Positions 4,971-59,641 of a stretch of 64,000 nt of DNA are shown in pieces; positions within the stretch are counted from its first letter, which is position 1, and each line of letters begins with the position of its first letter. The stretch is from positions 64,161-128,160 of the forward strand of contig CAYORN010000002.1 of assembly GCA_964406405.1 (NCBI GenBank), in the 5' to 3' direction. The notes under the pieces were generated by a model. That model was given only the letters and a program-made list of their open reading frames with translations. It did not search any database and was not told the DNA's origin. Source of the stretch: an uncultured Alphaproteobacteria bacterium (GTDB lineage: Bacteria > Electryoneota > RPQS01). The translations under genes were made by a program, and so were the position numbers.

Positions 4971-5009
4971 ACGTGGAATGTCTAAACTGCTTCCCGAATC
5001 AGCCTCCTG

Positions 5010-6620: not shown

Positions 6621-7093
6621 GGCACGATCTGCCCGTACCGCAGACAGGCATAGGCGACGCAGTTGCCGTTACAGTGGTCGCAATTCGGCTCGTCGTGGCA
6701 TTTCACCAGACAAACATACAGACGATACGAATGACCAGACACAAGGTTCACAGAGCACGTGTTGTTGCAATCGCCGGTGTCGCAGCCATTATTGTGGCAA
6801 CTGCCACCTTGTATCAGTTGCCCGTTCTCATAGACATAGGCACAAACTTCACAACCGCCGCAATCCGCGCCGTCCGGACACTTAACCCAAACATCAAAAG
6901 CATAGGTCGCGGTGCAGGATGCGGTGAACGCTTGAGCACTACACCCCGTGAGATCATTGTTGCACTCTATGCTCGAACAGCCGGTATCTTGTCCGCTGAT
7001 GAAATCGGAACAATCAGGACTGTCCCCGCCTCCTTGCGCCCACACTCCGCCTGTGATTACAAGAATTACTGCCACCAAGAATAACGCCTTCAT
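6608..7093 (-). CDS. small Cys-rich secreted protein (about 21 Cys), second type, unknown function
   Basis: signal peptide MKALFLVAVILVITGGVWAQ; 13-nt overlap with downstream beta-helix gene; same operon layout as 4316..4822. Confidence 0.65.
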   Translation of the reverse strand: MKALFLVAVILVITGGVWAQGGGDSPDCSDFISGQDTGCSSIECNNDLTGCSAQAFTASCTATYAFDVWVKCPDGADCGGCEVCAYVYENGQLIQGGSCHNNGCDTGDCNNTCSVNLVSGHSYRLYVCLVKCHDEPNCDHCNGNCVAYACLRYGQIVPCGQ

Positions 7094-7154
7094 GTTCCTT
7101 CACCTTACAAATTAGCTTGCCTGCCAGCGGCTCTATGTACGCAAGCCTGCATCC

Positions 7155-7242
7155 AAAGTAAGCAAAAAAAAACGGCTTGTCAAGCCGGTCAGTTTAAAGA
7201 GCCACGCATCTACAATCCAATAATCTATCAGCTTAGATATTG
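7155..7242 (-). promoter_or_regulatory. conserved upstream module copy 2 with sigma70-like promoter (TTGACA-17nt-TACTTT)
   Basis: identical 80-nt repeat to 4891..4970; -35 TTGACA at about 7178-7183. Confidence 0.5.
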
Positions 7243-7279
7243 GCACTGAATATCCAACCTGCCGCCTCGTCACCGTGAA

Positions 7280-11094: not shown

Positions 11095-11100
11095 CGGAAA

Positions 11101-11230
11101 GGATGAAGGCGGAAGGATGAAGGATGAACCGGAAACATTAGAGTCACCTTCGTCATTCATTTCAATTACCCTGTCATCGAGCACCTTTATGCTGAAGAAA
11201 TTCATCCTTCATCCCTCATCCTTCATCCTT
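11101..11230. repeat. inverted pair of GGATGAA heptad arrays (MITE-like, about 130 nt)
   Basis: left arm ggatgaaggcggaaggatgaaggatgaa (11101-11128); right arm ttcatccttcatccctcatccttcatcc (11201-11230) is its reverse complement; about 70-nt spacer contains the start codon of the next gene. Confidence 0.7.
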
Positions 11231-12604: not shown

Positions 12605-12613
12605 GCAAAGAAA

Positions 12614-12694
12614 GGATGAAGGATGAAGCAGAAGAGGGTCGGCTGCTTGATAACTGTGCTCGATACGCTTGAGATTCGCAGCCGACACCGCAAT
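12614..12694. repeat. heptad repeat fused to palindromic element G (GGTCGGCTGC...GCAGCCGACACCGCAA)
   Basis: aaaggatgaaggatgaagcaga then gggtcggctgcttga...gcagccgacaccgcaa; second copy of element G at 20781..20840. Confidence 0.6.
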
Positions 12695-19157: not shown

Positions 19158-19224
19158 GAAACGTGGCGCAAATTTGTCGCACACGAACTTGAAAAGATTG
19201 CTGCCCCCGACACACATCAACCTC

Positions 19225-19256
19225 GCCCCCCCTTACCCCCCCGTAAACGGAGGGGA
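19225..19256. repeat. poly-C hairpin element P, intergenic copy
   Basis: gcccccccttacccccccgtaaacggagggg; close match to the lpxB copy gcccccccttgcccccccgcaggcggagggg at 25117. Confidence 0.7.
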
Positions 19257-19262
19257 ATCGTT

Positions 19263-22243: not shown

Positions 22244-23848
22244 ATGGCTACGCTACATGAGTTCGTGAAAAACAGCCCGATGCTCGCCTATATTGAGAAG
22301 CGCCGGATGCAGGTATCAAAAGTCGCGTCACCCGAGACTCGAAAACATCTCGGTCAGTTTCTTACACCTGCGCCCATCGCTCACTTCATGGCCTCACTTT
22401 TCACATGCAGGTCAAAGCACGTTTTCTTGCTTGACGCAGGGGCTGGCATCGGATCGCTAACGGCAGCATTTGTTGACCATGTTCTTGCCTTGAGACAGCC
22501 CCCGGAATGCGTGTCGGTAGTCATGTGGGAAGTAGACCCGGAAATGCTCGCGCATCTCTCGAATGTGGTAAGACGTTGTCATGATGAATGTCACAAGATT
22601 GGGATCAAGTTCACGGCCGTCATTATTCCGGAAGATTTTACCGAATCCGGTGCAGAGATAATCTTAGACCGTTTATTGGGGAAGCGCACCTATGCCTTCA
22701 ACTGTGCAATTCTAAACCCGCCCTACCGCAAGATTCAGACAAACTCTCCAGAGCGGTTGGCCCTCCGAAAAGTTGGACTGGAAACCAGCAATTTGTACGC
22801 GGGCTTCGTGGGTCTGGCCATCAAACTGCTGAATCCTGGTGGACAGCTTGTCGCAATCACACCGCGAAGTTTCTGCAACGGCCCATACTTTAGGCCTTTT
22901 AGAGAACTGCTTCTGCGGGAGATGCGATTTCGACTCATACACACATTCGAGCGAAGGGATCGAGCTTTCGTCGGCGATGGTGTCCTCCAAGAGAACATTA
23001 TCTTTCATGCCGTCAAGAATACGCGTACCGAAAAGTGGGTTACTATTTCTTACAGTCATGGAGCTGAAGACGCGACGTTGTCTTCCCGAAAGGTGCAGCA
23101 TGATGCCGTGGTATCGTTATCTGACCCAGAGTTGATCGTGCATGTTCCACACAGCAAGTATGACCAGGCCGCACGTGAGAAGATCGACCTGGAAAAGATG
23201 ACTCTCGTTGATTTGGGCATTAGTGTTTCGACGGGCAGGGTGGTGGATTTTAGAGCGCGGGAATTTCTCCGCATGCAGCCGGGCAGTGACACAGCGCCGC
23301 TGATATACCCGCTGCACTTTGAAAGCGGTTTTGTCACCTGGCCAAGATTATCTGCGAAGAGGCCGAATGCCATTGAGGTTAACGACACTACGCGACATAT
23401 GTTGGTGCCCAAGGGGTATTATGTGCTCGTGAAGCGCTTCACTTCCAAAGAGGAACGCCGCCGGATTGTGGCGGTAGTGCTTGACCCTAATCGCATTGCG
23501 GCCCCTGAATTTGCTTTCGAGAACCACATCAATTTCTATCACGCAAACGGACACGGTTTGCCCGAAGCGTTAGCGAAGGGACTTGCGGCATACTTGAATA
23601 CAACGACCGTCGACCGGTATTTCCGGCAATTCAGCGGGCATACTCAGGTTAATGCATCCGATTTACGAAAGCTGACTTATCCGGATCGCGCGGCACTGGA
23701 AGCGATTGGCTCTCAATTAGGTCCAGCGTTTCTCTTTCAGGAAGAACTGGACACACTCGTAGACGAGGAACTCGCATCGTGGCGAAACAAGCAACAAAGC
23801 AGCCAGCCGAAATTCAAAGCCGCATCAAAGAGGCTCTCACTGTTCTGA
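22244..23848 (+). CDS. type II N6-adenine DNA methyltransferase (PstI/BsuBI-like gamma-class)
   Basis: motif I FLLDAGAGIGSLTAAF; motif IV NPPY (AILNPPYRK); 534 aa, close to M.PstI/M.BsuBI size; visibly lower G+C than neighbours. Confidence 0.75.
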   Translation: MATLHEFVKNSPMLAYIEKRRMQVSKVASPETRKHLGQFLTPAPIAHFMASLFTCRSKHVFLLDAGAGIGSLTAAFVDHVLALRQPPECVSVVMWEVDPEMLAHLSNVVRRCHDECHKIGIKFTAVIIPEDFTESGAEIILDRLLGKRTYAFNCAILNPPYRKIQTNSPERLALRKVGLETSNLYAGFVGLAIKLLNPGGQLVAITPRSFCNGPYFRPFRELLLREMRFRLIHTFERRDRAFVGDGVLQENIIFHAVKNTRTEKWVTISYSHGAEDATLSSRKVQHDAVVSLSDPELIVHVPHSKYDQAAREKIDLEKMTLVDLGISVSTGRVVDFRAREFLRMQPGSDTAPLIYPLHFESGFVTWPRLSAKRPNAIEVNDTTRHMLVPKGYYVLVKRFTSKEERRRIVAVVLDPNRIAAPEFAFENHINFYHANGHGLPEALAKGLAAYLNTTTVDRYFRQFSGHTQVNASDLRKLTYPDRAALEAIGSQLGPAFLFQEELDTLVDEELASWRNKQQSSQPKFKAASKRLSLF

Positions 23849-24765
23849 AGGCTATTGGTATGCCCAGAGAGCAGATCAATGAGCGATCCGCGCTGACCTT
23901 GCTTTCACTCGTGGGGCTAAGGCCTCAAGTACGTTGGAAGAGTGCACGAACGGAGTCTCGCGGTGTAACGCAGATGATGGAGTTCATGGCGACCGAATAT
24001 CGGAAACGCTATGCACCTAACACGCGCGAAACCGTCAGGCGATATGCGTTGCATCAATTCGTTCAGGCTGGAATTGCCCTAAAGAATGCCGACGATCCGT
24101 TGCGCCCCACAAACAGTCCGGACACAGTTTATTGTGGAGCACCTCCGCTGCTTGAACTCTTGAAAACTTTTGGAACTACTAAGTGGGAATCAACTCTCCG
24201 CAAGTTCCTTATTGCGCAGCCCGCTCTGAGCCAGAAATATGCCGCCGAACGAACGCTCCCGAGACTAAGAGTCAAGCTTCGAAAAGGACAGAGCATTGCG
24301 TTATCGCCGGGCGGTCAGAATGTACTCGTAAAGCGGATTGTTGAAGATTTCTGTCAGCTTTTTACTCCAGGTGCATCCGTTGTGTATGTTGGCGATACAA
24401 GCAAGAAATGGGCTTACTTTGATCAAGCACTGCTTTCGACTCTCGGCATTGACATAGAAAAGCATGGAAAAATGCCTGATGTCGTAGTGTATCAGGCAGA
24501 GAAGGGTTGGCTCGTGCTGATTGAGGCTATCACCAGCCATGGACCGGTAACTCCAAAACGGCAAAACGAACTCAAGGAGCTATTTGGGAGCACATTAGCA
24601 GGCTTGGTATTCGTCAGTGCGTTTCTGAGCAAGAAATCCCTGTTGAAATACTTGCAGGAAATTGCCTGGGAGACAGAGGTTTGGGTCGCAGAGCATCCTA
24701 CTCACATCATTCACTTCAACGGTGAAAGATTTCTGGGACCCTACGAATCAACGACCAGTGTCTGA
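23779..24765 (+). CDS. putative type II restriction endonuclease (BsuBI/PstI-like); start uncertain (alt. ATG 23860)
   Basis: 328 aa immediately after the MTase; N-terminal KEALTVLKAIGMPREQINERSALTLLSL; PD-(D/E)xK-like MPDVVVYQAEKGWLVLIEAITSHGP; low G+C. Confidence 0.5.
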   Translation: MAKQATKQPAEIQSRIKEALTVLKAIGMPREQINERSALTLLSLVGLRPQVRWKSARTESRGVTQMMEFMATEYRKRYAPNTRETVRRYALHQFVQAGIALKNADDPLRPTNSPDTVYCGAPPLLELLKTFGTTKWESTLRKFLIAQPALSQKYAAERTLPRLRVKLRKGQSIALSPGGQNVLVKRIVEDFCQLFTPGASVVYVGDTSKKWAYFDQALLSTLGIDIEKHGKMPDVVVYQAEKGWLVLIEAITSHGPVTPKRQNELKELFGSTLAGLVFVSAFLSKKSLLKYLQEIAWETEVWVAEHPTHIIHFNGERFLGPYESTTSV

Positions 24766-26038
24766 GCATCTCATCTTCATTTCCGCCGGCGAGGCCTCCG
24801 GTGACACCCATGCGGCGGGAGTAGTTCGTGAGTTGAAATTGCGTTATCCGGATGCGACGTTCTTTGGCATTGGCGGGGATCAGATGCTGGAAGCGGGAGT
24901 CGAACTGATCGAGCACGCGCGGCGGATGTCGTTCATGGGATTCGCCGAAGTTGTGCGGCATCTGCCGTTCATCTACGCCACGCGCACGCGCGTGCTAAAA
25001 GAGATCGTCGTGCGGCGGCCCGATCTGATTTTGCTCGTTGACTATCCGGGGTTTCATTTTTCGCTGCTCAGAAGTTTGAAGCGGATGAAGATCATTGGAA
25101 AGCCGAGTCAAAGTTCGCCCCCCCTTGCCCCCCCGCAGGCGGAGGGGAAATCTGCTTCATCCTTCATCCTTCATCCTTCATCCTTTCCGAGAGTTCTCTA
25201 CTACATTCCGCCGCAGGTGTGGGCGTGGAAAGCGGGACGGGCGAAGGAACTGGCGAAGCTGGCGGATCGGATTGCGGTGATCTTTCCGTTTGAGGTAGAG
25301 ATCTTCAATAAGGTGACCCCCCCTGAATCCCCCCCGCTAAAGCAGGGGGGAAAGGCGGTGTTTGTCGGGCATCCGCTGTTAGATGAAGTGGGAGACATTC
25401 CGCCGCGGGGGCAGTTTCTCAAGAGCATCGGGCTGGAGCCGGATGACCGGGTGATCGGGTTGTTTCCGGGTTCGCGCAAGCAGGAGATCCGGCGCCATCT
25501 GCCGGTGTTAGTGGAGACGGTGCGCCTGCTGCGGCGGTTTCATCCGGAATTGAAATTCATTCTGGCCGAAGCGCCGGGCGTGCCGCTGGATCTGTACACG
25601 CGGTTGCTGCGCGACATTGCGGGAATCGTGCGCGTGGGCGGCGTGTCGCACGAAGTGCTCGCGCATTGCAACGCGTCCTTCGTGAAGTCCGGCAGCAGCA
25701 CCGTGGAAGCGGCGTACTTCGGCAATCCGTTCGTGGTGTTCTACAAGGTGTCGGCGCCGAGCTATGCGATCGGCAAGCGCATCGTGAAGGTGCCGTACAT
25801 TGCCATGGCGAATATCCTCGCGGGCGAGATGGTGGTGAAGGAGCTGATTCAGGATCAGGCCACGCCGGAAAATCTCTTCGCCGCCATGCTGCCGCTGATC
25901 AATTTGCCGGAGAGCGTGGAAGCCTGCCGCGCGGGACTCAGGAAAGTTCGCGCGCAGTTGGGCGAACCGGGCGCGGCAAAGCGAGTGGCGGAATTGGCGG
26001 GGGAACTGGTGGAAGAAAGGATGAAGGATGAAGGATGA
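24758..26038 (+). CDS. lpxB: lipid-A-disaccharide synthase LpxB carrying two in-frame repeat-element insertions
   Basis: GTG start (GTGTCTGA overlap with REase stop); LIFISAGEASGD, VSPxVWAW-like YIPPQVWAWK, FPFE; 30-aa and 14-aa extra segments coincide with repeat elements. Confidence 0.85.
   Translation: MSEHLIFISAGEASGDTHAAGVVRELKLRYPDATFFGIGGDQMLEAGVELIEHARRMSFMGFAEVVRHLPFIYATRTRVLKEIVVRRPDLILLVDYPGFHFSLLRSLKRMKIIGKPSQSSPPLAPPQAEGKSASSFILHPSSFPRVLYYIPPQVWAWKAGRAKELAKLADRIAVIFPFEVEIFNKVTPPESPPLKQGGKAVFVGHPLLDEVGDIPPRGQFLKSIGLEPDDRVIGLFPGSRKQEIRRHLPVLVETVRLLRRFHPELKFILAEAPGVPLDLYTRLLRDIAGIVRVGGVSHEVLAHCNASFVKSGSSTVEAAYFGNPFVVFYKVSAPSYAIGKRIVKVPYIAMANILAGEMVVKELIQDQATPENLFAAMLPLINLPESVEACRAGLRKVRAQLGEPGAAKRVAELAGELVEERMKDEG
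25117..25179. repeat. composite element: poly-C hairpin P + TTCATCC heptads, in-frame within lpxB
   Basis: gcccccccttgcccccccgcaggcggaggggaaatctgcttcatccttcatccttcatcc translated as SPPLAPPQAEGKSASSFILHPSSF. Confidence 0.75.
25317..25350. repeat. poly-C hairpin element P variant, in-frame within lpxB
   Basis: ccccccctgaatcccccccgctaaagcagggggg translated as TPPESPPLKQGG. Confidence 0.7.
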
Positions 26039-26050
26039 GGGAGGAAGGAA
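26018..26050. repeat. GGATGAA heptad array at the lpxB 3' end
   Basis: aaggatgaaggatgaaggatgagggaggaagg; gives the LpxB ORF a ...ERMKDEG tail. Confidence 0.65.
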
Positions 26051-37300: not shown

Positions 37301-37627
37301 GCAGAAGGAGTGAATCGTGCTGACCGGCATGGTGTCGAGTTCGAGCAGGGCGCGCCGGTACGATGCACGGTCCGGCGCGTTCTCTTGCGCGCGCGCTTCG
37401 AGTTGTTTCCGCAGCTTGATTTTCAGTTCGCCCGCGGCCTTTTCGGTGAAGGTGATCGCGACCACCTGCGCCAACGGCACTTGCCGCTCGCGAACAATGG
37501 TTAAGATGCGTTCCACCAGCAGCGTAGTTTTTCCGGTTCCCGCGGCGGCTTCGACGATGTAAGTCGTGCTCAGGTCGCTGGCGGCGAGCGTGCGCTCGTG
37601 TTGATCTACAATCGGGCGCTCGCTCAT
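34391..37627 (-). CDS. addA: ATP-dependent helicase/nuclease subunit A (AddA/RecB-like UvrD helicase + PD-(D/E)xK nuclease)
   Basis: Walker A AAAGTGKTT; UvrD motifs; C-terminal nuclease VIDLMFVE...IIVDFKTD; start ATG overlaps addB stop (ATGA). Confidence 0.85.
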   Translation of the reverse strand: MSERPIVDQHERTLAASDLSTTYIVEAAAGTGKTTLLVERILTIVRERQVPLAQVVAITFTEKAAGELKIKLRKQLEARAQENAPDRASYRRALLELDTMPVSTIHSFCRELIQERPVEAGVEPNFSVADQATAELLRAEVWEEWIAGEFSGECPAARPLLERGISALSSRGFSLRDLYEVLLNYREDLDALHVATLNDDALSKRFAAFREELRSELTALDACKNREDGLAKELLKIQEWLARGDTLDLMNAATWLEQKPELSKRSPGQQANWSSKEIQERAKLLRAEFETRADAVYAEFVSRWADNAVQWLKGAAEAYAQAKTLRGRLDFHDLLLLARNMLQTSRAARAFFKERFTFILVDEFQDTDPLQTEIVFFLAEQPDSFAGEWEDVELVPGKLFIVGDPKQSIYRFRRADLDLYGKVREKIEACGKCLHIRMNFRSVPDILHEVNDVFAAHMTGERNGRYEPEYVALEPYRDAVTSPQTVFLAPPDSWWDNKPNAKQQAQAEAACIAEYIREQVQQHGRTYRDIGILYSATTHLTELEHALRSREIPYQVAGGKKFIERSEVTALRTVIAALDNPFDESSVVGALRSPFFACSDEDLLVQRWDGDGFNYLRCDGALPHVEECLALLRELHRQKARRAPSETIADLFARAKGLQIYALKPHGDGRVANLLKLLDMARALENDAGSSFHALARRLAKLEDTRAAEDDSATAETGDNVVQLLTFHKAKGLEFPLVMLFRLGHVNNRPEGPLIARGTKALEFSARKGFATAGYLAASEDDHDREACEHMRLLYVAMTRAREQLVIPAYWCDATKGFYKLLRTRYTSLGQMPETGHTRFTVHDSSRYSLDVPPTEALKIELDMPENDPRVGASIAAKAGWEQQRRVAVEQLNRSRAFATPSRSSSLGISANGHGVNRDAAKFGSYVHRLLERVTLPDGANLGRICLSSAEEFGIRENRIQEGCDLVRAALKSDLFQRAYRAEALYREVPFADVQDGVLWEGVIDLMFVEQDQLIIVDFKTDAISTNELPDSAQHYAAQLHAYRRAMEKIAGKPVAELLLYYLRPNTTVAVPPLKVTV

Positions 37628-40600
37628 TCGGAACCTTCGCGCAAAACGCGCAACGCGTCGGTTTGCGGCAGCTCGTAATCCCACTTGTGCGTGAAGCGTC
37701 CGGTGCCGCACGCCGCTTTCGCCGCGCAGAACTGGCAGACATCATTGGGCGTGGGGAAGAACTGGCCATGACCGACGAGGCCGGACACCTCCTCTATAAG
37801 CCGGGTGATGCTGGCGCGGTTCTGCTCCCAGGACTCGCGCGAGATTTCTATCGTCTGCGCTTCCTCCGTGCCGAGGAAATAGTACGCAAACGCGCCCACA
37901 TCGAGACCGAGCGCGGCGGCCGCGAGACGGGCGACGTGCGGCTCCAGTCCTGCCGCCGTGTCGTGCTGTTTAGCGCGATTCTCGAATTTTGCTGTGGTGT
38001 AATCCACCAGCCGCACCGCGCCATCCACGCCGATGTCCACGCGATCAATCCTGCCATGCAGCCGCAGCGTGTAACCGTTGCCGATTGGCAAGGTAACCGG
38101 CTCACGGCGAGACAGCTCGGAATCGCCCTCGTCTAAGCCATAGGTCACGTTAAAGTGCGCCGGACGAAAGGAGGAGGCTGCATTCACTTCGCACGAGAAA
38201 AACGCTTGCAACCGTTGTTTGATCCGCTCCTTTTCAATGTCCCAGAGGAGCGGCAGCCCGGGCACAAACTTGCGCTCAAACTCGGCGAAGCTCTCGTCCG
38301 CCGTGGAGGCCAAGCGCGGCCAGGCGTCGGCCGTTAAGGGCCAGCGGTTCGCCCGGGTTTCGGCGCGATAAAAGTGCTCCAAAATGTCGTGGATCAGCAT
38401 GCCGCGCGCGCGCGGTTCGAGCGGCTGAAGCCAATGCGGTTCGGCGGTGGGTTCCAGTTCGAGCAAGTGCATCACAAAATATTGAAACGGGCAGTCGAGG
38501 TAGCGTTGGATGCGACGCGGCGAGAGTGACGGGATCCATACCTTCAGACGCTCGCGCAAGCTTTGCGATTCGATGCTGCCGTCGAAAGGCGTGAACTCGC
38601 GCGCGCGATACCGCATGTGTTCCGCGTGCACGCCACGCTGGAATGCGGGATCCGCGCAGAAGAGATAGGCGACGTTGTCCGCGCTTTTCGTATGCAGAGC
38701 CATGCCGAGGCGGGCGAGGTCATATTGAAACGGCGTAACGGCCTGATCGGGGCGCTTTCCTTGCAGGCGATTGAGCGCCACGCGCCGCGCTTGCGGACTG
38801 GTACGGACAAAGGACTCCAACGACTCATAGTCGGCGGCATTCCCCGTTGCCGCCTCGAGCGCGCGCAGCAGAAATGCCGAGGCCAGCCACTCGCGGCCTT
38901 CCACCGGATCGAGGCGCGAGTAAGTGAGCACGACGCGGCGGCGCGCGGAGTTCACCGCGGTACGAAAGAGAAAACGCTCGCGATGGCGCAGCCGCGAGCG
39001 CAGCGGAATGGCAATGTCCGGGTGGTGCAGAGCACGCTGCAATTGCAGGCGCTCGTCGTCGAGCAGCAGCGGGTCTTGCGCGGTGGGACGCGGGAACTCT
39101 TTCTCCACCACGCCGCAGAGAATCACATCATCGAACACGACGCCAAACGCATCGGAGATTCTCGCAATGGTCGGCTCATGGACCTCGAACTTGCCTTCGC
39201 GGTCGAGCGGCTGCGACAGCAACGATTCAATGAAAGAAGAAAACTCGGCGGCATCCGGCTTTAGTCCCAGAGCATCGAGCAATGCCGCGTGCGTGAGTTG
39301 CTCGCGGATCAACTCCGCCTCGCCGTTACTCTCCACGAACTCGACATAGAGTGCGGCGGTGCGCTCGCCGATCTCCCGCCATGTTTTCGCCTTGCGGACG
39401 GCCGTGATTCCGGCAAACAACCGCTCGATGTACTGCTGGAAAACATCCAGCGACGCCAACTGGCGTTGCAGCGGAGCGGCAGGATCATCCATCTCCCGTT
39501 CGCGGCGCGCGAGTTCTTCCTCAAGCTGATGACATAAGCGGGATAGGTTCTGCCGCCACGGCGTCTCGCCGGCGATGATCTGCGCCTTGAGCGTGAAGTG
39601 ATTCCACTCCGCGGCAGGGACTTCGGGCAGTTCCGGAGGGAAATAGGCTGGGCGGCGGAGCGGCGACGAGAGCAGGAATTCCATCACGTCCGTACGACGG
39701 AACACGCCGTCGAAGAGCCTTACCAGCCAGCGCAGCGCGCGGCCCGAGGGCGTGTCGCCCAGCCTGCGGCACTCATGGATGTAACTCGTGATGCCGGCGC
39801 GCGACCACTCCTCACGCACGAGCGGGAGATAACTTGCGCTCTCGCGCATCAGGACGCCAATTGTTTCTCCCCTCCGTTCACGGGGGGGACTAAGGGGGGG
39901 CGAATCTGGTCCAATGCCGAACGACTTCGGATGCGATGCCGACCCGTACACCACCTCCCTCAGTATTTCCTCCACTTCACTGTCCCGGCCCGCCGCCGAA
40001 ATCACCCGAAAACTCTCATCTCCCCCTACTTCAGTAGGGGGATTAAGGGGGTCATCTTCAAGTGTCTCTTCAAACACTCCCAGTTGCACCCGCGCGAGCG
40101 CGTTGTCCTGCCCGGCGCGCTCGTCCGGCTCCAGCAGCTCGGCTTCGAAACCCTGTTCGAGATACCATTGGTAGAGCGGTTCGCTCCAGACATAGGCATC
40201 GGACGCACGAAAGGGCAAATATGCGATTGTTTCACATCCCGCCATCGCCCGCAGGATCAACTGCCGCTTCATGGCACTCAGATCATCCAGGCCATAAACG
40301 ACCAGACCCGCTTTCACGTTGCCTGCGGCTTGCCCTGCTAACTCGATCAGCATCGCGTGATCGGCGAGCTTGTGCCTTCGCATCAGTCCGTCCAACGCAC
40401 GCCAGATCGCGGCTATCTCTTTTAGTTTTTGGCGCGTGAGATCGCTGACCTGCGGACGATCGGACGCCGGCAAGATGTCTTCGGCAGTGAGCCCGACGGC
40501 TTTGAGTTCGTGAATCGTTGTCCACGCGGCGCGCTGGAAGCCCTTGCGAGGGGCCATGCGATGGAAATAGCGCAGTGAACACATTTCGACTGCGCGCTTC

Positions 40601-40905
40601 ATCAGCGGGTCCCGTTCGACATCGGAGATCATCCGCCAGCCCCGCTCGACCAGAAGCGGTGACGCGAGGTCATGCGCGTAATCTGTGAGCGTGCAGAAAC
40701 GAAGATTGGCATGACTCACGCCGGCGCGCGCCAATTCCCGTCGCAACGACAGCCCCGCCAGCACGCCGGGGACGAGCACAACCAATGGCGCCAGCGGATC
40801 GCGTTGGCGCCATTCGCGCAGGTCGGCGATGAATTGCGCCTGCAATTCGGGGAAATCCCCGGCAAAGAGGCGGCGGCTTGGGGAGGATGGGTCAGGCAGG
40901 GTCAC
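37624..40905 (-). CDS. addB: helicase-nuclease complex subunit B (AddB/RexB-like) with two in-frame poly-C element insertions
   Basis: C-terminal PD-(D/E)xK nuclease with Fe-S cysteines GRIDRVDIG...LVDYTTAKF...CQFCAAKAAC; immediately upstream of and overlapping addA. Confidence 0.8.
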   Translation of the reverse strand: MTLPDPSSPSRRLFAGDFPELQAQFIADLREWRQRDPLAPLVVLVPGVLAGLSLRRELARAGVSHANLRFCTLTDYAHDLASPLLVERGWRMISDVERDPLMKRAVEMCSLRYFHRMAPRKGFQRAAWTTIHELKAVGLTAEDILPASDRPQVSDLTRQKLKEIAAIWRALDGLMRRHKLADHAMLIELAGQAAGNVKAGLVVYGLDDLSAMKRQLILRAMAGCETIAYLPFRASDAYVWSEPLYQWYLEQGFEAELLEPDERAGQDNALARVQLGVFEETLEDDPLNPPTEVGGDESFRVISAAGRDSEVEEILREVVYGSASHPKSFGIGPDSPPLSPPRERRGETIGVLMRESASYLPLVREEWSRAGITSYIHECRRLGDTPSGRALRWLVRLFDGVFRRTDVMEFLLSSPLRRPAYFPPELPEVPAAEWNHFTLKAQIIAGETPWRQNLSRLCHQLEEELARREREMDDPAAPLQRQLASLDVFQQYIERLFAGITAVRKAKTWREIGERTAALYVEFVESNGEAELIREQLTHAALLDALGLKPDAAEFSSFIESLLSQPLDREGKFEVHEPTIARISDAFGVVFDDVILCGVVEKEFPRPTAQDPLLLDDERLQLQRALHHPDIAIPLRSRLRHRERFLFRTAVNSARRRVVLTYSRLDPVEGREWLASAFLLRALEAATGNAADYESLESFVRTSPQARRVALNRLQGKRPDQAVTPFQYDLARLGMALHTKSADNVAYLFCADPAFQRGVHAEHMRYRAREFTPFDGSIESQSLRERLKVWIPSLSPRRIQRYLDCPFQYFVMHLLELEPTAEPHWLQPLEPRARGMLIHDILEHFYRAETRANRWPLTADAWPRLASTADESFAEFERKFVPGLPLLWDIEKERIKQRLQAFFSCEVNAASSFRPAHFNVTYGLDEGDSELSRREPVTLPIGNGYTLRLHGRIDRVDIGVDGAVRLVDYTTAKFENRAKQHDTAAGLEPHVARLAAAALGLDVGAFAYYFLGTEEAQTIEISRESWEQNRASITRLIEEVSGLVGHGQFFPTPNDVCQFCAAKAACGTGRFTHKWDYELPQTDALRVLREGSE
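39869..39902. repeat. poly-C hairpin element P (reverse orientation), in-frame in addB
   Basis: revcomp cgcccccccttagtcccccccgtgaacggagggg translated as DSPPLSPPRERRGE. Confidence 0.7.
40022..40051. repeat. poly-C hairpin element P variant, in-frame in addB
   Basis: revcomp ccccttaatccccctactgaagtaggggg translated as DDPLNPPTEVGGDE. Confidence 0.65.
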
Positions 40906-41040: not shown

Positions 41041-41068
41041 TTGCATAGCAGGAGATAAGTCTCTACGA

Positions 41069-41106
41069 GAGATCCTTCAGCCCGCAGACGGGCTTCAGGA
41101 TGACAA
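41069..41106. repeat. REP-like element E, copy 2
   Basis: gagatccttcagcccgcagacgggcttcaggatgacaa. Confidence 0.7.
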
Positions 41107-49759: not shown

Positions 49760-51343
49760 CTACAACTCCCTCAACTCGGAGTGTGGATAATAGTGTTCGA
49801 GAATACTCTCCACACTCCGCCCCGCTTTTGCCATGGCCGCCGCGCCTAATTGGCAGAGGCCGACGCCGTGGCCCCACCCGCCGCCCGTCAAGGTGATCGT
49901 GTCGCCGTGGATGTCGAAGACGAAGAACGACGAGGGCAGGTGCGATGACGAGAGTGCGCGTCGGATGTTGAGTTCGCCATAGATCACGAAGGAGGCTGAT
50001 CTGCCGACAATTTCCAGGACGAGAATACGCCCTGAGGACCCGCGGCGCTTGACGTGCAGCGATTTGATCGCACCGACTTTTGTGCCGGTTTTGCTCGCGA
50101 TCAATTCGCCCAATTCCGCGCACGAATAGGTGCGTTGCCAGCGGAAGAGCGGGTCTGTGTCCCACGGCTCGGGATAGGGAAACAGCTTGTCGTTGCACCA
50201 CGCCGGCGGATGCGAGAGCACGAACGCGCGCGCATGCTCCTCGTCCGTCAAATCGAGCACGGGGAACTCGCCGCACGCGCGTACCGCGAAATACGCCGGC
50301 CCTTCGTCACCCCACGCTTCTTCATAAAGTTCGCTCACGCCGCCGCAGGACTTCGCATACCTCGCGTCTACGACGCGGGGAAAGGATGAAGGATGAAGGA
50401 TGAAGGATGAAGCAGACCCCCCTTTTGTCCCCCCACTAAGGTAGGGGGAGACTAAGACTTTTCCGGCGGAATCACGAATCGGAGCCACAACTGCGTTGGC
50501 TTCACGATACGTACCTTGATAACACTGGCAGTGATCGTCGTTGCAGAGATCGAAGCCGTCGGCGCGGTGATGGCGGCCCGCCGTGGCGAGCACCGTGGAA
50601 CGCGCGGCAATCGCCTGCGCCTGCGAGAAGGCCGGCGGCAAATCGGAACGCATCTCGCTGCCGACCGCGCTCTCAAGGTACATTTCGAGCGGCAGAATAT
50701 TGACCGCCGTGAGATCGTGCCCCTGCGGCTGAAAGAGTTTCAACGAACCGCGATATTCGAGCTGCTCCTTGTGCTCCCAATGAAAGCCGCGGCCGATCGG
50801 CACGTCGTAGAGCCAGAACACCGCAACGTCGTTCAGCGGCCGCGTGCGCACCTCGAGCACTTTCGCGGAAAAATCGCCGAGCGTAAATTCGAAGTACTCG
50901 GCAGGCTTGGCTTCATTCAGCTTGACGACGGTGAAGCCGAGTACGTTCAGCTCGTGGCGCGCACGCAGCACCTCCATCACGTTGGCAGCGTGCTCGGGCG
51001 AATTGACGCGCACGGTCGGCCACCAGACGCGGTTGTCGAGCGTGCCGTTGGGCGTTTCCCATTGCCGCCCGGCTTCGAGCATCAAGAGATCCTCGTTGGC
51101 CGCGAGATCGCCAACGAAGGAAAGCGTGCGCTCGGCATGTTCACGCGAGAGCGATTCGGCCAAACGCAAACCATAGCTCTCGTTGGGTTCGCTGGTCACC
51201 GCGTGAGCTTCGAAATATCCGGCAATCTGGTCGAATTTCAAACTGCGGCAGCAATCCGTGATGCAGATCACTTCGTGATCGCAGATCAGTTCGCCGCGGA
51301 TGTGCGGCTCTTCCCAGAGCAGGCCGATGGAAACGGAAAGCAT
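49760..51343 (-). CDS. SpoIID/LytB-domain protein (amidase-enhancer-like) with in-frame repeat insertion
   Basis: LPLEMYLESAVGSEM...AQAIAARSTVL...HHRADGFDLCNDDHCQCYQG (SpoIID domain); ...ARYAKSCGGVSE; start taken at MLSVSIG (51343) because upstream in-frame codons are repeat-derived. Confidence 0.7.
   Translation of the reverse strand: MLSVSIGLLWEEPHIRGELICDHEVICITDCCRSLKFDQIAGYFEAHAVTSEPNESYGLRLAESLSREHAERTLSFVGDLAANEDLLMLEAGRQWETPNGTLDNRVWWPTVRVNSPEHAANVMEVLRARHELNVLGFTVVKLNEAKPAEYFEFTLGDFSAKVLEVRTRPLNDVAVFWLYDVPIGRGFHWEHKEQLEYRGSLKLFQPQGHDLTAVNILPLEMYLESAVGSEMRSDLPPAFSQAQAIAARSTVLATAGRHHRADGFDLCNDDHCQCYQGTYREANAVVAPIRDSAGKVLVSPYLSGGTKGGSASSFILHPSSFPRVVDARYAKSCGGVSELYEEAWGDEGPAYFAVRACGEFPVLDLTDEEHARAFVLSHPPAWCNDKLFPYPEPWDTDPLFRWQRTYSCAELGELIASKTGTKVGAIKSLHVKRRGSSGRILVLEIVGRSASFVIYGELNIRRALSSSHLPSSFFVFDIHGDTITLTGGGWGHGVGLCQLGAAAMAKAGRSVESILEHYYPHSELREL
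50383..50449. repeat. composite GGATGAA heptads + poly-C hairpin P, in-frame within the spoIID-like gene
   Basis: ggatgaaggatgaaggatgaaggatgaagcagaccccccttttgtccccccactaaggtaggggg read on minus strand as SPYLSGGTKGGSASSFILHPSSFP. Confidence 0.75.
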
Positions 51344-51387
51344 AGAGAAAATTGAAAAATGAAAATCGAAAATTGTCGTCTTTTTGT

Positions 51388-51497
51388 TTGTCATCCTTGA
51401 ACGAAGCGCGTCTGCGCGCGTAGTGAAGGATCTCTCCGGGCAACAATCTGAAGCAGAGAGATCCTTCAGCCCGAAGACGGGCTTCAAGGATGACAAG
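51388..51497. repeat. inverted pair of REP-like E elements flanking a 23-nt spacer
   Basis: ttgtcatccttgaacgaagcgcgtctgcgcgcgtagtgaaggatctc ... gagatccttcagcccgaagacgggcttcaaggatgacaag; preceded by A-rich heptads gaaaaattgaaaaatgaaaatcgaaaattg. Confidence 0.65.
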
Positions 51498-55106: not shown

Positions 55107-56207
55107 ATGCACGACAAGCTGTTTATTCCCGGCCCGATTGAAGTCCGGCCGGAACTCCTCCAGGAGATTGCGCGCCCGCAAGTGGGGCATCGTACCCAAG
55201 CCTACCGCGATGTTCATCAGGCCGCGGTGGAGATGACGAAAAAGATCCTCTATACCGAGCAGGAAGTGCTGCTCTTTACCAGCTCCGCGACCGGCGTAAT
55301 GGAGGGCAGTGTCCGAAATCTGGTGCAGAAGAAAGTACTGCACGGCGTGAACGGCGCGTTCTCGCAACGCTGGTTCAATATCTCGTCGAAGTATAACGGC
55401 ATTCCCGCCGACAAGCTCGAAGTGCCGTGGGGACAGGCGATCAAGCCGGACATGATTGACGCGAAACTGAAGACCGGCGAATACGACGCATTCTGTTTGG
55501 TCTTCAACGAGACCTCGACCGGCGTGCGTGCACCGGTGGAAGAAATTGCGCAGGTCATGCGCAAATATCCCGACGTGATGTTTTTGGTGGACGCCGTGTC
55601 CGCGATGACGGGGGACAAGATCGAGTGCGACAAGCTCGGGCTTGATGTTTGCTTGGCCGGGACTCAAAAGTGCTGGGGTCTGCCCGCCGGGCTTTGTGTG
55701 ACCATGGTGTCCAATAAGGCGCTGGCGAAGGCGGCCACGACCAAGAATCCGGGGTACTACGTGAACTTCGTGGACGCGAAAAAGTACAACGACAAGCACG
55801 AAGTGCCGCATACGCCGGCGGTGCCGCTGATCTTCGGCTTGCGCGCGCAGGCGGATTACATCCTGAACAAGGAAGGGCTCGAAAATCGCTGGGCCCGGCA
55901 TAAGGAGATGCAGAAGATTGTACACGCGTGGGCGCTGGACAACGGCTTCTCGCTGTTCCCGGAGAAAGGCTACGAATCGGTAACGCTCTCGTGCATCAAC
56001 AACACGAAAGGCATGGAGATTTCCAAGCTGAACAAGGAACTCTCGAAGCGGCATCACGCGATCATCTCGAACGGCTACGGCGACATCAAGGAGAAGACCT
56101 TCCGCATCGCGCACATGGCGGATTGGCAGGTCGCGGACATCAAGCAGCTCTTAGGATGGCTGGACGAGATCATTCCGGTCGCGATGCCGCAACCGGTGGA
56201 AGTATGA
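55107..56207 (+). CDS. class V PLP-dependent aminotransferase (serine-pyruvate/alanine-glyoxylate or phosphoserine aminotransferase type)
   Basis: 366 aa; N-terminal KLFIPGPIEVRPELL; overall class V aminotransferase profile. Confidence 0.8.
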   Translation: MHDKLFIPGPIEVRPELLQEIARPQVGHRTQAYRDVHQAAVEMTKKILYTEQEVLLFTSSATGVMEGSVRNLVQKKVLHGVNGAFSQRWFNISSKYNGIPADKLEVPWGQAIKPDMIDAKLKTGEYDAFCLVFNETSTGVRAPVEEIAQVMRKYPDVMFLVDAVSAMTGDKIECDKLGLDVCLAGTQKCWGLPAGLCVTMVSNKALAKAATTKNPGYYVNFVDAKKYNDKHEVPHTPAVPLIFGLRAQADYILNKEGLENRWARHKEMQKIVHAWALDNGFSLFPEKGYESVTLSCINNTKGMEISKLNKELSKRHHAIISNGYGDIKEKTFRIAHMADWQVADIKQLLGWLDEIIPVAMPQPVEV

Positions 56208-56211
56208 TTCA

Positions 56212-56235
56212 AGGATGAAGGCGGAAGGACGAAGT
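56212..56235. repeat. GGATGAA heptad remnant + hairpin
   Basis: aaggatgaaggcggaaggacgaagttccctccgcctt. Confidence 0.5.
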
Positions 56236-56290
56236 TCCCTCCGCCTTTATCTTTACTTGGCAAAGAACAAGCAATCTGGAGACGAAGAAC

Positions 56291-56470: not shown

Positions 56471-56565
56471 ACCCCCTTTGTGTTTCCCCCAAAACGAGTT
56501 TTGGGGGAAAGAGCATTATGCTCTCGAACAAATATTCATGAAAGAACCTTAAACAGGAGGCCGCG

Positions 56566-58020
56566 ATGAAGTACTCACTTCTGATTCTGCTGGCGTGTGC
56601 GGTGGCGGGGTTTGGGCAGCCGGTGGAAGGGCCGTTTATCGTTATTGAAAGCGACTCGGCCATTCACCACATTCACGTCGCTGCGCGAAATGATTCGGTG
56701 GCGGATGTGTTTTATCAGGTGGGGAATGCGGCGTATCACGTTGCTTTTGCGCTCGATATTGGGGTGGTATATGCAGGGCCGGATGCTCTTCCTATGCGGA
56801 GCGCAAGCGACGCTCGAATGCTCTGCGATGTAACATCAACCACAGTCGGCTGGGCAGCTCTGACCTACGACTCATCTTCCGGATGGAATCGAACGATGGC
56901 CTACTCTGGATCTGACAACCCGGATTCCGGCATGATGCTTGACTCGGGAATTGTGATGAGCAGCGGGGAATGGGTTTCGATCAGTCAAAATTACGCGCTT
57001 CGGCTTTCATCGAGAACGTCAGGCGGATTCTTCGCGGCATGGCTCAATGAATGGGCCTACGATCGTCCGTGGTTTTGGGGTGAAGCCGGGGCTGGACCGG
57101 TTGTCCATGAGTTCTCACCTGGCGGTGTGCATCGGTGCGCGCAAAACGGTTATGAGGGCCCTTTTCAAAACGAAAGCCAGTCTGTAGATGTTTTCGAATG
57201 GAGTCCGGATACGTCTCTTGTCCTCATAAGTGAACCCGACGGCATCACAATAAGCGCTGCTCCGTGGGGCGAATTTGGTTGCGGCTATGTTAGCTCCTTA
57301 AATTGGCTTTGGCGAGGGGTGCGCAATGTCGGCAGCTTGTTTACGAGCAGCGGTACAATCTTTGTTGTCTCTCGCAGCGTGGGATCTTCCCAAGCCTGCA
57401 TTCTGCGTATTGACGATTTCTCATCATACACTCAATTGGATACTCTGGACAGCGAGCCGATCGTCGCTGCTTCTAACCTCTCCTTCGGCTTCGCGTGGCT
57501 CTCTCAGCCTTCGAGCGGATTACTCCTGAATCGTGCCGACACGACCGGAACGCTCGTTCATCCGGCAGGTGTGGTGTGCTGGCCGGATGAAGGAATGGCT
57601 ATAACCGGAAGCAATATTGCCATTTCGGATAACGGCAAGATTGTGATCGTTTGGACGACGCAAGCCATCGCGAATCCGGAATCCACGCAGCTTTGGATTG
57701 AAGCCGTGGATTGGCTCACTCCGCTTTCGGTTAGTCCACAACCGGAGGTTGTGGGCAGTCCGTCGGATTTTGCACTTTCCGCCTATCCGAACCCCTTCAA
57801 CAGCGAGCTGCAGATTGCGTATGACCTGCCGCGCGCGCAGACGATTGAGTTGGCGGTGTACAACGTGCTCGGGCAAAAGGTGGCGGAATTGGTGAACGGA
57901 GTGCAGACCGTGGGAAATCATCAGGCGATGTGGTCGGCCCATGAAGGGAGCGGGATCTATTTCGTGACGCTGAGGACGGGAGAGACTACTAAGACACAGA
58001 AGGTGCTGCTGGCGCGATAG
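56566..58020 (+). CDS. T9SS-sorted secreted protein, tandem family member 1
   Basis: CAGGAGG RBS; signal MKYSLLILLACAVAGFGQPVEGP; C-terminal YPNPFNSELQIAYDLPRAQTIELAVYNVLGQKVAEL...GSGIYFVTLRTGETTKTQKVLLAR. Confidence 0.7.
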   Translation: MKYSLLILLACAVAGFGQPVEGPFIVIESDSAIHHIHVAARNDSVADVFYQVGNAAYHVAFALDIGVVYAGPDALPMRSASDARMLCDVTSTTVGWAALTYDSSSGWNRTMAYSGSDNPDSGMMLDSGIVMSSGEWVSISQNYALRLSSRTSGGFFAAWLNEWAYDRPWFWGEAGAGPVVHEFSPGGVHRCAQNGYEGPFQNESQSVDVFEWSPDTSLVLISEPDGITISAAPWGEFGCGYVSSLNWLWRGVRNVGSLFTSSGTIFVVSRSVGSSQACILRIDDFSSYTQLDTLDSEPIVAASNLSFGFAWLSQPSSGLLLNRADTTGTLVHPAGVVCWPDEGMAITGSNIAISDNGKIVIVWTTQAIANPESTQLWIEAVDWLTPLSVSPQPEVVGSPSDFALSAYPNPFNSELQIAYDLPRAQTIELAVYNVLGQKVAELVNGVQTVGNHQAMWSAHEGSGIYFVTLRTGETTKTQKVLLAR

Positions 58021-58100
58021 AATATTTTCTCGATAAGGACGGCCATAATAAATCATGGCCCTACGAATATTCGTTGAAGAACATCGAACAGGAGGCCGCG

Positions 58101-59561
58101 ATGAAGTACTCACTCTTGATTTTGCTGGCGTGTGCGGTGGCGGGGTTTGGGCAGCCGGTGGAAGGGCCATACGTTGTAACAGATAATCCCTATTGGGCTG
58201 ATCCGCTGTCTCTTGCGCTGCGCAACGACTCGACAGCGGACATTTTCTACGGCGAGCTGTTCGCATATCGTCAGCCATTCTCCTTTGCGACAGATGATAT
58301 TGAGGGCGATGCGCAGCTACTGTCTTTCGAGAACTCTCCTCACAACGTACGTATTCTCCCTGTGGATGCAGCCAGCGCAAATGGATGGTGGTACGTGCTG
58401 GGTTACGGAGACGACGGGACAAATAACCTGACCATGCTGGCGTACGGTGATGCAAATCCGGAGAACACGCAGTTCGCCTTTATTGACGACGGCGACAACG
58501 TACTCGAGCAACCGTTTGGTGAGACGAGCGTTAGCCGCAGTCGTGCGATCTGTCCACGCGTCGGCGGCGGCTGCATTATCAGTTGGATGGATGACTGGAT
58601 GTATGACAACGGCTGGTGGCAAGAAGGCGGCAGCGACTTTCGCGCGATCGTAATGGATCCATCAGAACCCGAGCAAACTTATGAACGAAACCTGGGCTTT
58701 TCCTGGTTTGAATCAGCCCAGGCGTTATCACTCACGCGAGACACTTTAAGAATGGTGGGAACCGTGTACGACGGACTCTGCGTCCAAGACATTACAGAGG
58801 AATGGACGATAGGCTGCTTCGATGAAAACCCGTACTCTTCCTGCTCACTATTTGTCGTCGAATACTTGCGAACATTTACGGGCCGCGAATTCGCGCTGGG
58901 GATTGAGAGTAACTTCTGGCAATTTGCCTACGCTCCGCGATTGGTAGAACTTGATTCCGTCACGCAAACTTGCCAAGAAGTCATGGACATTGTGCACAAT
59001 CCAATCGCCTGGGCATCACATCCCTTGTGGGGAATGGCATGGCTTTCCAAACCGGGAGCTGGACTGCTGCTGACCAGAGTTGATACTGCAGGAAGTGTTT
59101 TTTCGCAGGATGGTACTCTTTATTGGCCCGAGGCCAACTACCGTGTCTTGAATGCTGACCTCGCCATATCACCGACAGGCTGGTTGGTGGCCAGTTGGTG
59201 GGAAATTAACGAGGATGTGTGGGATGAGTCGCGAATCATGATCGCGCGGGTGTTCTGGGATACACCCCTCTTCACGAACCCCGAGCCCGAACGCACAGCC
59301 GTGGGGCGCTACGAATTGCAGACGTATCCCAATCCCTTCAACAGCGAATTGCAGATTGAGTATGATTTGCCACGCGCAGGAGACGTGGAACTTGGGGTGT
59401 TCAACGTCCTCGGGCAGCAGGTGGCGGAGTTGAGTCACGGAGTCATGCCGGCGGGGCGGCATCAGGCGATGTGGTCGGCCCATGAAGGGAGCGGGATCTA
59501 TTTCGTGACGCTGAGGACGGGAGAGACTACTAAGACACAGAAGGTGCTGCTGGCGCGATAG
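58101..59561 (+). CDS. T9SS-sorted secreted protein, tandem family member 2
   Basis: identical leader and signal peptide; C-terminal 37 codons identical at nucleotide level to member 1. Confidence 0.7.
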   Translation: MKYSLLILLACAVAGFGQPVEGPYVVTDNPYWADPLSLALRNDSTADIFYGELFAYRQPFSFATDDIEGDAQLLSFENSPHNVRILPVDAASANGWWYVLGYGDDGTNNLTMLAYGDANPENTQFAFIDDGDNVLEQPFGETSVSRSRAICPRVGGGCIISWMDDWMYDNGWWQEGGSDFRAIVMDPSEPEQTYERNLGFSWFESAQALSLTRDTLRMVGTVYDGLCVQDITEEWTIGCFDENPYSSCSLFVVEYLRTFTGREFALGIESNFWQFAYAPRLVELDSVTQTCQEVMDIVHNPIAWASHPLWGMAWLSKPGAGLLLTRVDTAGSVFSQDGTLYWPEANYRVLNADLAISPTGWLVASWWEINEDVWDESRIMIARVFWDTPLFTNPEPERTAVGRYELQTYPNPFNSELQIEYDLPRAGDVELGVFNVLGQQVAELSHGVMPAGRHQAMWSAHEGSGIYFVTLRTGETTKTQKVLLAR

Positions 59562-59641
59562 AATATTTTCTCGATAAGGACGGCCATAATAAATCATGGC
59601 CCTACGAATATTCGTTGAAGAACATCGAACAGGAGGCCGCG

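Follow-up and report, generated by a model that had tools for sequence, protein, structure and literature searches.

The stretch analyzed here, 64,000 nt of contig CAYORN010000002.1 from an uncultured bacterium (hereafter the window), carries on its minus strand an addB-like gene with 2 short poly-C elements in its coding sequence. A first-pass annotation had proposed that these are in-frame copies of the same element and that such insertions are selected for the Pro-Pro-Leu peptide they encode. Both strings were found on the minus strand, CCCCCCCTTAGTCCCCCCCGTGAACGGAGGGG at 39869-39900 and CCCCCTTAATCCCCCTACTGAAGTAGGGGG at 40022-40051, with a gap of 121 nt between them, and both lie within an intact open reading frame (ORF) of 1093 aa, whose translation around them reads ...GPDSPPLSPPRERRGE... 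and ...EDDPLNPPTEVGGDE.... The 2 copies do belong to one family, but they represent different subtypes of it, here called A and B. The naming of the host gene was also correct: the product contains a PD-(D/E)XK domain (E=7e-29) together with a weak, sub-threshold match to ADDB_N, and the profile of its homologue alignment, in which the Fe-S cysteines are invariant, matches Bacillus subtilis AddB (3u44_B) with E=5e-37. A UvrD-type AddA-like gene adjoins addB. The features of this gene are the following:

37624 to 40905, minus strand: host gene, AddB-like nuclease subunit, intact 1093-aa ORF (PD-(D/E)XK domain and homologue profile)
39865 to 39902, minus strand: poly-C element of subtype A at addB site 2, tCG-C7-TTAGT-C7-G-TGAA-C-GGAGGGG-AGAAA, read as SPPLSPPRERRGE
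39904 to 39945, minus strand: 14 additional codons (GSASHPKSFGIGPD) directly upstream of the site-2 element
40019 to 40054, minus strand: poly-C element of subtype B at addB site 1, GA-C5-TTAAT-C5-TAC-TGAA-GTA-G5-AGAT, read as DPLNPPTEVGGD

The regular expression C5+ N2-6 C5+ N3-14 G4+ gave exactly six copies in the window, at 19226, 25118, 25317 and 50417 on the plus strand and at 39869 and 40022 on the minus strand, against a chance expectation of 0.01 on average and 1 at maximum in 300 dinucleotide-preserving shuffles. A profile made from 13 copies of the lineage recovered the same six copies in the window and none besides (nhmmer --max, E from 9e-8 to 5e-6). All copy counts for the source genome refer to the window. 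In addition to the addB copies, the family is represented by these features and their hosts:

19222 to 19260, plus strand: poly-C element of subtype A, the sole intergenic copy, whose GGAGGGG precedes the GTG of a Polysacc_synt gene by 8 nt
24662 to 26038, plus strand: host gene lpxB (Pfam LpxB, E=7e-86), with its true start probably near 24770
25114 to 25152, plus strand: poly-C element of subtype A at lpxB site A, read as SPPLAPPQAEGKS
25151 to 25188, plus strand: heptamer module TCTGC(TTCATCC)4TTTCC joined to the site-A element and read as SASSFILHPSSFP
25315 to 25353, plus strand: poly-C element of subtype B at lpxB site B, about 30 nt ahead of native Gly-Gly codons, read as TPPESPPLKQ-GG
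49760 to 51496, minus strand: host gene encoding a SpoIID-like protein
50378 to 50416, plus strand: heptamer module GGAAAGGATGAAGGATGAAGGATGAAGGATGAAGCAGA abutting the SpoIID element, minus-strand reading SASSFILHPSSFP
50414 to 50452, plus strand: poly-C element of subtype B, antisense in the SpoIID-like gene, minus-strand reading SPYLSGGTKGG

Subtype A (19226, 25118 and 39869) has the form tCG-C7-TTR(NN)-C7-G-NNNN-C-GGAGGGG-A, and subtype B (25317, 40022 and 50417) the form GA-C5-7-spacer-C5-7-perfect stem-loop-G5-6-A. The common anatomy is a C-run, a spacer of 2-6 nt (often TTA, TTAAT or TTAGT), a second C-run, a hairpin loop, a G-run and an A, within some 30-40 nt; the G-run is complementary to the second C-run, and 1-3 extra base pairs close the 4-nt loop. 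A hairpin of 7-9 bp can be drawn in all copies. For the addB site-1 copy it is a perfect 9-bp hairpin (DNA fold of -9.0 kcal/mol, z=-4.0), with the reservation that z-scores against dinucleotide shuffles are uninformative for sequence dominated by homopolymers, and the conservation of complementarity across copies was used in their place. Two pairs of copies are less than 200 nt apart, which has P=0.003 under uniform placement. Five of the six copies are genic (2 in lpxB, 2 in addB, 1 antisense in the SpoIID-like gene), and the annotation was right that they preserve the host frame, as every host ORF is intact and free of stops through each copy.

Comparison of lpxB between related genomes revealed filled and empty sites. 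In what follows, L-numbers designate loci of related genomes, metagenomes and viral contigs, and P0072 is the LpxB of locus L365. Most of 56 LpxB homologues (52-87% identity) have neither insertion; in P0072, which is 80% identical, sites A and B are both empty, and the 12.9 kb of L365 contain none of the three repeat modules described here (poly-C element, heptamer array and a third hairpin module). In the alignment with Escherichia coli LpxB (5w8s), a clean 10-residue gap faces the 25317 copy, and residues 144-176 of the ORF, a surplus of 33 aa corresponding to the 25118 copy plus heptamers, have no counterpart. At the DNA level, the empty site B reads ...CAG CAT / GGC GGA..., the slash marking the insertion point, and in the window and L366 there are 30 added nt before the Gly-Gly codons (ACC CCC CCT GAA TCC CCC CCG CTA AAG CAG). 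At the same point, L368 has a different C-run insertion of 51 nt and L367 a 129-nt composite of the two other modules, GAGATCCTTCAGCCCGCAGACGGG and TCTGC(TTCATCC)4. Site A is occupied in the window, L366 and L367 by a shared composite that joins a subtype-A element to a variable heptamer array and a TCTGS(YTCATCS)n array, in L368 by a (CAAGTCT)n array alone, and in seven LpxB homologues of 65-70% identity by one or two poly-C elements in either orientation. Other heptamer arrays found at the lpxB site in relatives are based on AAACTCG, CCAAATC, CAAGTCT and TCATCGC, a variety that recalls the short tandemly repeated repetitive (STRR) sequences of cyanobacteria.

The heptamer module TCTGC(TTCATCC)4TTTCC abuts the poly-C element both in lpxB and in the SpoIID-like gene, and in both it is read as SASSFILHPSSFP. 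Its complement contains TGA in all three frames; therefore, genic heptamer copies survive in one orientation only. On L242, a syntenic contig, the orthologous SpoIID gene carries an insertion at this position too, with a decayed (TCATCGC)n array and without a poly-C element.

In addB, where the annotation had called for an alignment of homologues, the site-2 segment is 17 aa longer than in 9/9 aligned homologues, and site 1 is a hypervariable loop. Of the 17 surplus residues, 14 (GSASHPKSFGIGPD) precede the element, and to judge from the sequence they may be what is left of a heptamer module (SAS..HPKSF resembling SASSFILHPSSF). At site 1, relatives that are nearest in sequence (55-59% identical) hold heptamer-derived peptides, among them SSFILHPSS, SSLIPHPSSLL and SLIPQPSSL; heptamer modules occupy this site in L241, L242 and L244, and L241 has there two tandem composite units with the GCAGGC loop of the window lpxB copy. 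At site 2, L242 contains the element-like CCCCCAGTCCCCCGGACTGAAGCAGGGG with the ACTGAAG loop of the window site-1 copy. The AlphaFold model of AddB (mean predicted local distance difference test score, pLDDT, of 76) places both elements in coil between regular secondary structure: site 1 between helix 269-276 and strand 299-304, with 10-residue blocks averaging pLDDT 49 and 65, and site 2 between helix 307-320 and strand 349-353, where residues 323-345 stay below a pLDDT of 50. Relative to B. subtilis AddB, site 1 corresponds to a variable stretch ahead of the 'LTVMQA' strand and site 2 to the turn ahead of 'VAILAR'. Both addB sites are, as predicted by the model, permissive loops. The lineage of the window is related to Calditrichota: a cluster containing a 41%-identical AddB homologue includes one member named 'Calditrichota bacterium', and the window has genes with tails of the type IX secretion system.

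Copies at unrelated loci of different genomes can be nearly identical. The intergenic 19226 copy shares 33/34 nt with the lpxB site-A copy of L366 (L366:10389), and the addB 40022 copy shares 32/34 nt with a copy at L366:439, in the N-terminus of an unrelated Meth_synt_2 gene, while the AddB proteins of the two genomes are only 56% identical. Non-orthologous copies are therefore closer to each other than their host genomes are, which is a signature of copy-and-paste. Copies at orthologous positions are less alike than these 2 pairs, which suggests turnover or concerted evolution of the copies. Orthologous copies also decay, as seen for the stem of the lpxB site-B copy in L366 and of the addB site-2 copy in L242, and this argues against strong selection on the structure. 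We also observed different subtypes at the same place, codons 5-15 of the Meth_synt_2 (MetE-like) gene, in L366 (439-468) and L368 (1632-1660), a site that is either a further hot spot or the product of a mis-called start codon.

We also looked for the element outside the lineage, scanning three collections by pattern; each gave at least 120 matches, GTDB species genomes and IMG/VR viral contigs with a 19-base pattern and metagenomes with a 22-base subtype-A pattern. By an estimate that assumes uniform base composition, roughly 100 matches of the 19-base pattern are expected by chance in the whole GTDB collection; the GTDB matches show features that the pattern did not require, namely G6-7 runs and additional loop-closing pairs. 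Among the matches listed, which comprise 416 distinct copies with 166 distinct inner sequences, additional complementary pairs beside the loop occur in 80% versus 31% in shuffled sequences, the 80% being inflated because the metagenome pattern required a G...C loop-closing pair, and in about 38% of the copies elsewhere a second G-run makes the palindrome perfect, at a length of 40-45 nt. Taxa among the matches listed are Nostocales and other cyanobacteria, Nitrospirae, Anaerolineae and other Chloroflexi, Phycisphaerae and other Planctomycetota, Poribacteria, Calditrichota, KSB1, Bacteroidia, metagenome-assembled genomes (MAGs) of Rickettsiales and others. The same architecture is thus present in at least 8 phyla plus viral contigs, including the isolate genomes of Nostoc sp. 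C117 (complete) and Scytonema HK-05 (nearly complete). In the viral matches listed, the dominant form is C6-TTA-C6-N3-5-G6-A. Five proteins from five different lineages were confirmed by Pfam as in-frame hosts elsewhere:

Rickettsiales MAG (L006): DNA polymerase I, in the linker that joins its 5'-3' and 3'-5' exonuclease domains
Anaerolineales: aconitase
Scytonema: CobN/Mg-chelatase, with three copies
Oscillatoriales genome: protein kinase-AAA_16 protein, directly ahead of the P-loop
Bacteroidia: Eco57I-type methylase

A Nostoc ORF presumably has the same kinase-AAA_16 arrangement with the element before the P-loop. The metagenome locus L150 encodes a 1152-aa ORF, which we take to be a DNA methyltransferase with an intein-like interruption, and this ORF contains several peptides derived from G-runs or C-runs (NSPPLKGGQGGV..., PPNPPDIGGALRG...). 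The viral contig L250 holds four copies within 2.3 kb (5241-7538), and in many other viral contigs the short C6-TTA-C6-N3-5-G6-A form seemingly marks one conserved locus, with the element between ...ttagaa and acgcgggcgaggggcagggc.

Placing five of six copies in coding DNA requires no preference for genes: at an assumed bacterial coding density of 85-90%, random placement gives this result with a probability of 0.78-0.89. Genes are thus not enriched for copies; they are merely not avoided. Among 307 copies from the matches listed elsewhere, 37-47% lie in long open frames, which are a stop-free proxy for coding and not gene calls, versus 66-70% for random 31-mers of the same loci, so that the family is under-represented in such frames; the open-frame copies divide into 33 in sense orientation, 54 in antisense orientation and 43 that are palindromic, with every phase in use. 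The element itself is open in 3-5 of the 6 frames in every window copy. Genomes vary at lpxB site A in the length of runs and spacer (C7-TTG-C7 versus C7-TA-C8), with the frame shift compensated nearby, and the peptide is PPLAPPQAEGKS in the window and L367 and TPPTPPVNGGES in L366, that is, different frames of the element. Compensated indels inside the site-A element indicate that the host frame is conserved, not the peptide. Frame preservation is the trace left by purifying selection on addB and lpxB, and the in-frame status is best explained by survivorship, with genic copies tolerated and not favored.

We also compared the element with known small repeats. Yeast mitochondrial GC clusters and 'byp' elements are short GC-rich mobile palindromes that invade coding sequence; byps break the frame and the ribosome bypasses the insert. 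The poly-C element resembles the GC clusters as a short GC-rich palindrome in coding DNA. A bypass element of the byp or T4 gene 60 kind was rejected, since an unbroken host frame without stops runs through each genic copy, so that ordinary translation suffices; continuity of all frames also led us to reject a mini-intron. Transposable elements of the miniature inverted-repeat type (between 70 and 300 bp long, with terminal inverted repeats matching an insertion sequence and with target-site duplication) were rejected as well, the poly-C element being too small and lacking flanking direct repeats at the lpxB sites. Cyanobacterial small dispersed repeats, SDR1-8, were reportedly described by Elhai and colleagues in 2008 as mobile repeats of 21-27 nt, some of them stem-loops, lying within heptamer arrays and other repeats and having no transposase. 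By this description, the poly-C element is similar in being very small and fused to (TTCATCC)n heptamer arrays in lpxB and SpoIID; compared by description only, it differs in its wider taxonomic range and its frequent translation. PMC5861425 places SDRs in Nostocaceae only.

Intragenic repetitive extragenic palindromic (REP) sequences, tagged by GTAG or CGTC (Di Nocera et al. 2013; PMC3733652), are GC-rich palindromes of 20-40 nt that favor replication and repair genes, UvrD, PolA and RecBCD-type genes among them; an in-frame subset adds 10-30 residues, and some genes are hit twice. Likewise, the poly-C element is a small, GC-rich imperfect palindrome, dispersed (six copies in 64 kb), sometimes paired and in frame in repair genes. 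Unlike REPs, it shows neither a GTAG nor a CGTC tag in the alignment of the 13 lineage copies; one strand ends in tCG/GA-C-run on one side and G-run-A(A/G)A on the other, and the opposite strand in their complements; an additional 5' C-run makes it a 'three-quarter palindrome'; it is associated with heptamer arrays; and no cognate REP-associated tyrosine transposase (RAYT) was found in the window or in the 360 loci compared. REPs are also mostly extragenic and downstream of genes, whereas in the window lineage most occupied poly-C sites are genic (five of six copies in the window, against the 37-47% in long open frames elsewhere by the stop-free proxy). Rickettsia palindromic elements (RPEs; Ogata et al. 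2000), as presented in PMC3733652 and PMC3184786, are palindromes inserted in frame in functional genes and tolerated in surface regions, and the poly-C element is likewise inserted in frame in functional ORFs and translated; in-frame repeat fusions in general are treated in PMC3184786. RPE-1 is about 100-150 bp long and restricted to Rickettsia, unlike the poly-C element with its 30-45 nt, its homopolymer runs and its occurrence in at least 8 phyla plus viral contigs; the RPE consensus is absent, and the polA copy of the Rickettsiales MAG has the poly-C architecture. A literature search with the element and peptide strings returned nothing relevant, at most papers on silver nanoclusters. Its closest described counterparts are intragenic REPs, RPEs and other in-frame repeat fusions, and the small dispersed repeats of Nostoc; the poly-C family behaves like these but fails the defining sequence tags of REPs and RPEs. 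The kind of repeat is known, yet this family is found in unusually many bacterial phyla.

Altogether, we consider it likely, with a probability of about 0.7, that the poly-C segments of addB are copies of a very small dispersed palindromic non-coding repeat, translated in loops that tolerate them. Copies would enter at the DNA level, singly or joined to TCTGC(TTCATCC)n arrays and to the third hairpin module, and would land in intergenic and coding DNA alike. A genic copy would persist where it falls in a permissive surface loop or interdomain linker, offers a stop-free frame and changes the net length by a multiple of three; it would then simply be transcribed and translated as a short Pro/Gly-rich loop, and would later drift by stem decay and by changes of run and spacer length with compensating indels nearby. 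We infer that the elements are selfish or neutral and not useful.

Several observations weigh against this explanation. A mobilizing enzyme, a terminal inverted repeat or a target-site duplication was not found; flanking direct repeats were not visible at lpxB sites A and B when filled and empty sites were compared, and all-against-all clustering of the ORFs of 240 element-bearing loci gave no element-linked gene family, the families recovered being generic (histidine kinases, type IX secretion system (T9SS) proteins, ABC ATPases and oxidoreductases). A Y1_Tnp homologue was absent from the window and 360 loci, save for L365 and a weak match in L045, and the RAYT-like Y1_Tnp of L365, which stands beside the empty lpxB, was rejected as mobilizer, having a different inverted repeat at its flanks and no homologue in the window. 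In the window, hairpins of subtype A are weak, with z of about 0 to -1 versus shuffles (to be read with the reservation given above). In L242, addB site 2 is no longer than in element-free homologues, and simple insertion fails there; the copy could represent a replacement, a conversion of native loop codons or a chance resemblance, and the native 9-residue loop may have been partly overwritten and not displaced. The pairing of copies and the repeated use of the same sites could reflect function and not tolerance, and the cross-phylum family, being defined by architecture, may be polyphyletic. As for the way of movement, the most plausible routes would be either a trans-acting enzyme for single-stranded hairpins (an HUH tyrosine transposase of the RAYT or IS200-like type) or template switching or gene conversion at hairpin-prone sites; the replacement case of L242 and the reuse of hot spots favor the latter somewhat over an HUH/Y1 enzyme.

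The proposal of the annotation, that insertions are selected for a specific Pro-Pro-Leu-containing peptide serving as linker or motif in the host proteins, is very improbable in our view. It would account for the fact that 5/5 genic copies are in the host frame and give Pro-rich followed by Gly-rich peptides, at loop positions where a flexible linker is plausible. The same five copies, read as SPPLSPPRERRGE, DPLNPPTEVGGD, SPPLAPPQAEGKS, TPPESPPLKQGGK and SPYLSGGTKGGS, use three sense phases plus one antisense, with unrelated peptides as the result, and at lpxB site A related genomes read the insertion in different frames; Pro-Pro is itself uninformative, because C-runs give it in any frame. 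In long open frames elsewhere antisense copies outnumber sense copies (54 versus 33), an LpxB of 80% identity does without both insertions, and one window copy and most copies elsewhere lie outside open frames. The explanation that a nucleic-acid structure is under selection is unlikely, although clearly less so than the peptide. The structure could be a hairpin in RNA or DNA, a G-quadruplex or i-motif arising from the paired G7/C7 runs, or a C+.G-C triplex in which the first C-run folds back onto the hairpin, and it could act on transcription, on the stability of mRNA, on pausing of translation at boundaries of domains or on the binding of proteins. In agreement with it, the architecture is kept across phyla with covarying loop-closing pairs, the first C-run, dispensable for the hairpin, is kept, copies cluster in pairs and frequently sit at domain boundaries (the PolA linker, ahead of the AAA_16 P-loop, around the AddB beta-alpha unit), and the intergenic copy has its GGAGGGG at the position of a ribosome-binding site. 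On the contrary, both orientations occur within genes, stems have decayed in orthologous copies (L366 site B and L242 addB), subtype-A hairpins are weak, different modules interchange at one site, and no compensation is visible in close relatives that are free of the elements. Neither the window nor the elements of 15 loci matched an Rfam 15 family at the gathering score, and around the addB copies there was only noise (E up to 10).

The homopolymer runs themselves raise two further explanations. Runs of 7 C or G are prone to slippage, and they could act as phase-variation switches (contingency loci) turning addB or lpxB on and off, in line with the C7-TTG-C7 and C7-TA-C8 variants at the same lpxB site. 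We regard this as slightly less credible even than the peptide explanation: because all frames are continuous, phase variation was rejected, length changes come with frame-restoring compensation, and on/off switching is implausible for housekeeping hosts such as lpxB, addB, polA and aconitase. Homopolymer runs are also error-prone in some sequencing chemistries, so that chance similarity or an assembly or sequencing artefact such as poly-G reads could be imagined. Such an origin is next to inconceivable in the face of six copies versus 0.01 expected, intact host frames, the same architecture in isolate genomes and in assemblies of many projects, and same-position insertions common to independent assemblies.

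Some neighboring repeats and genes were also recorded. The interval between GFO_IDH_MocA and lpxB (window 22244-24765) holds two additional ORFs, the first of which we take to be an N6-adenine DNA methylase; nothing is present there in L366, and L365 has in the same interval (1136-1645) a Y1_Tnp (RAYT-like) gene of 169 aa between inverted GAGACCCCGCCGAAAT repeats. The interval seems to be a variable integration spot. Heptamer arrays of (AAGGATG)/(CATCCTT) occur apart from poly-C elements at 1022-1052, 11095-11133, 11203-11233, 12608-12628, 26013-26047, 56200-56245 and 60847-60877, and the pair 11095/11203, inverted and about 70 nt apart, could form a long hairpin. The third module, GAGAGATCCTTCAGCCCG(C/A)AGACGGGCTTCA with the hairpin GCCCG-NAGA-CGGGC, was seen in the window at 41067-41097 and 51456-51486 (intergenic), in L367 at 1287-1308 (translated in lpxB site B) and in L368 at 881-902. 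The window also contains tandem duplicate genes with T9SS C-terminal sorting tails at 56528-59724 and 2728-7262 (repeat families D1-D3 and D9), as well as a 98-nt repeat with an A8 run at its start and a short GC hairpin, duplicated together with an upstream gene fragment (D2 and D7).

A broader hypothesis, which we put forward tentatively and consider doubtful, is that the poly-C/poly-G 'double-run' hairpin represents one class of mobile DNA, extremely small and very widespread, that spreads without a linked transposase by an undescribed mechanism, such as template switching or conversion guided by hairpins or triplexes at replication forks. Jointly with the heptamer arrays it would repeatedly colonize a few hot-spot loops in housekeeping genes, and its range would include Cyanobacteria, Nitrospirota, Chloroflexota, Planctomycetota, Poribacteria, Calditrichota/KSB1, Bacteroidota, Rickettsiales and viral contigs. 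If so, it would be a bacterial counterpart of the mitochondrial GC clusters, and if the cross-phylum family proved monophyletic and phage-borne, it would count among the most widely distributed types of mobile DNA known. For the genes concerned, the finding means that essential and repair genes (lpxB, addB, polA, aconitase) of many uncultured lineages hold translated 'junk' loops derived from a repeat of 30-40 nt. Annotation and alignment are affected by spurious Pro/Gly-rich inserts, by apparent length variation and by C7/G7 tracts that invite frameshift calls, while the insertions flag naturally permissive sites for protein engineering. Moreover, with filled and empty sites and with hot spots shared by three interchangeable modules, the movement of small repeats becomes approachable by comparative genomics.

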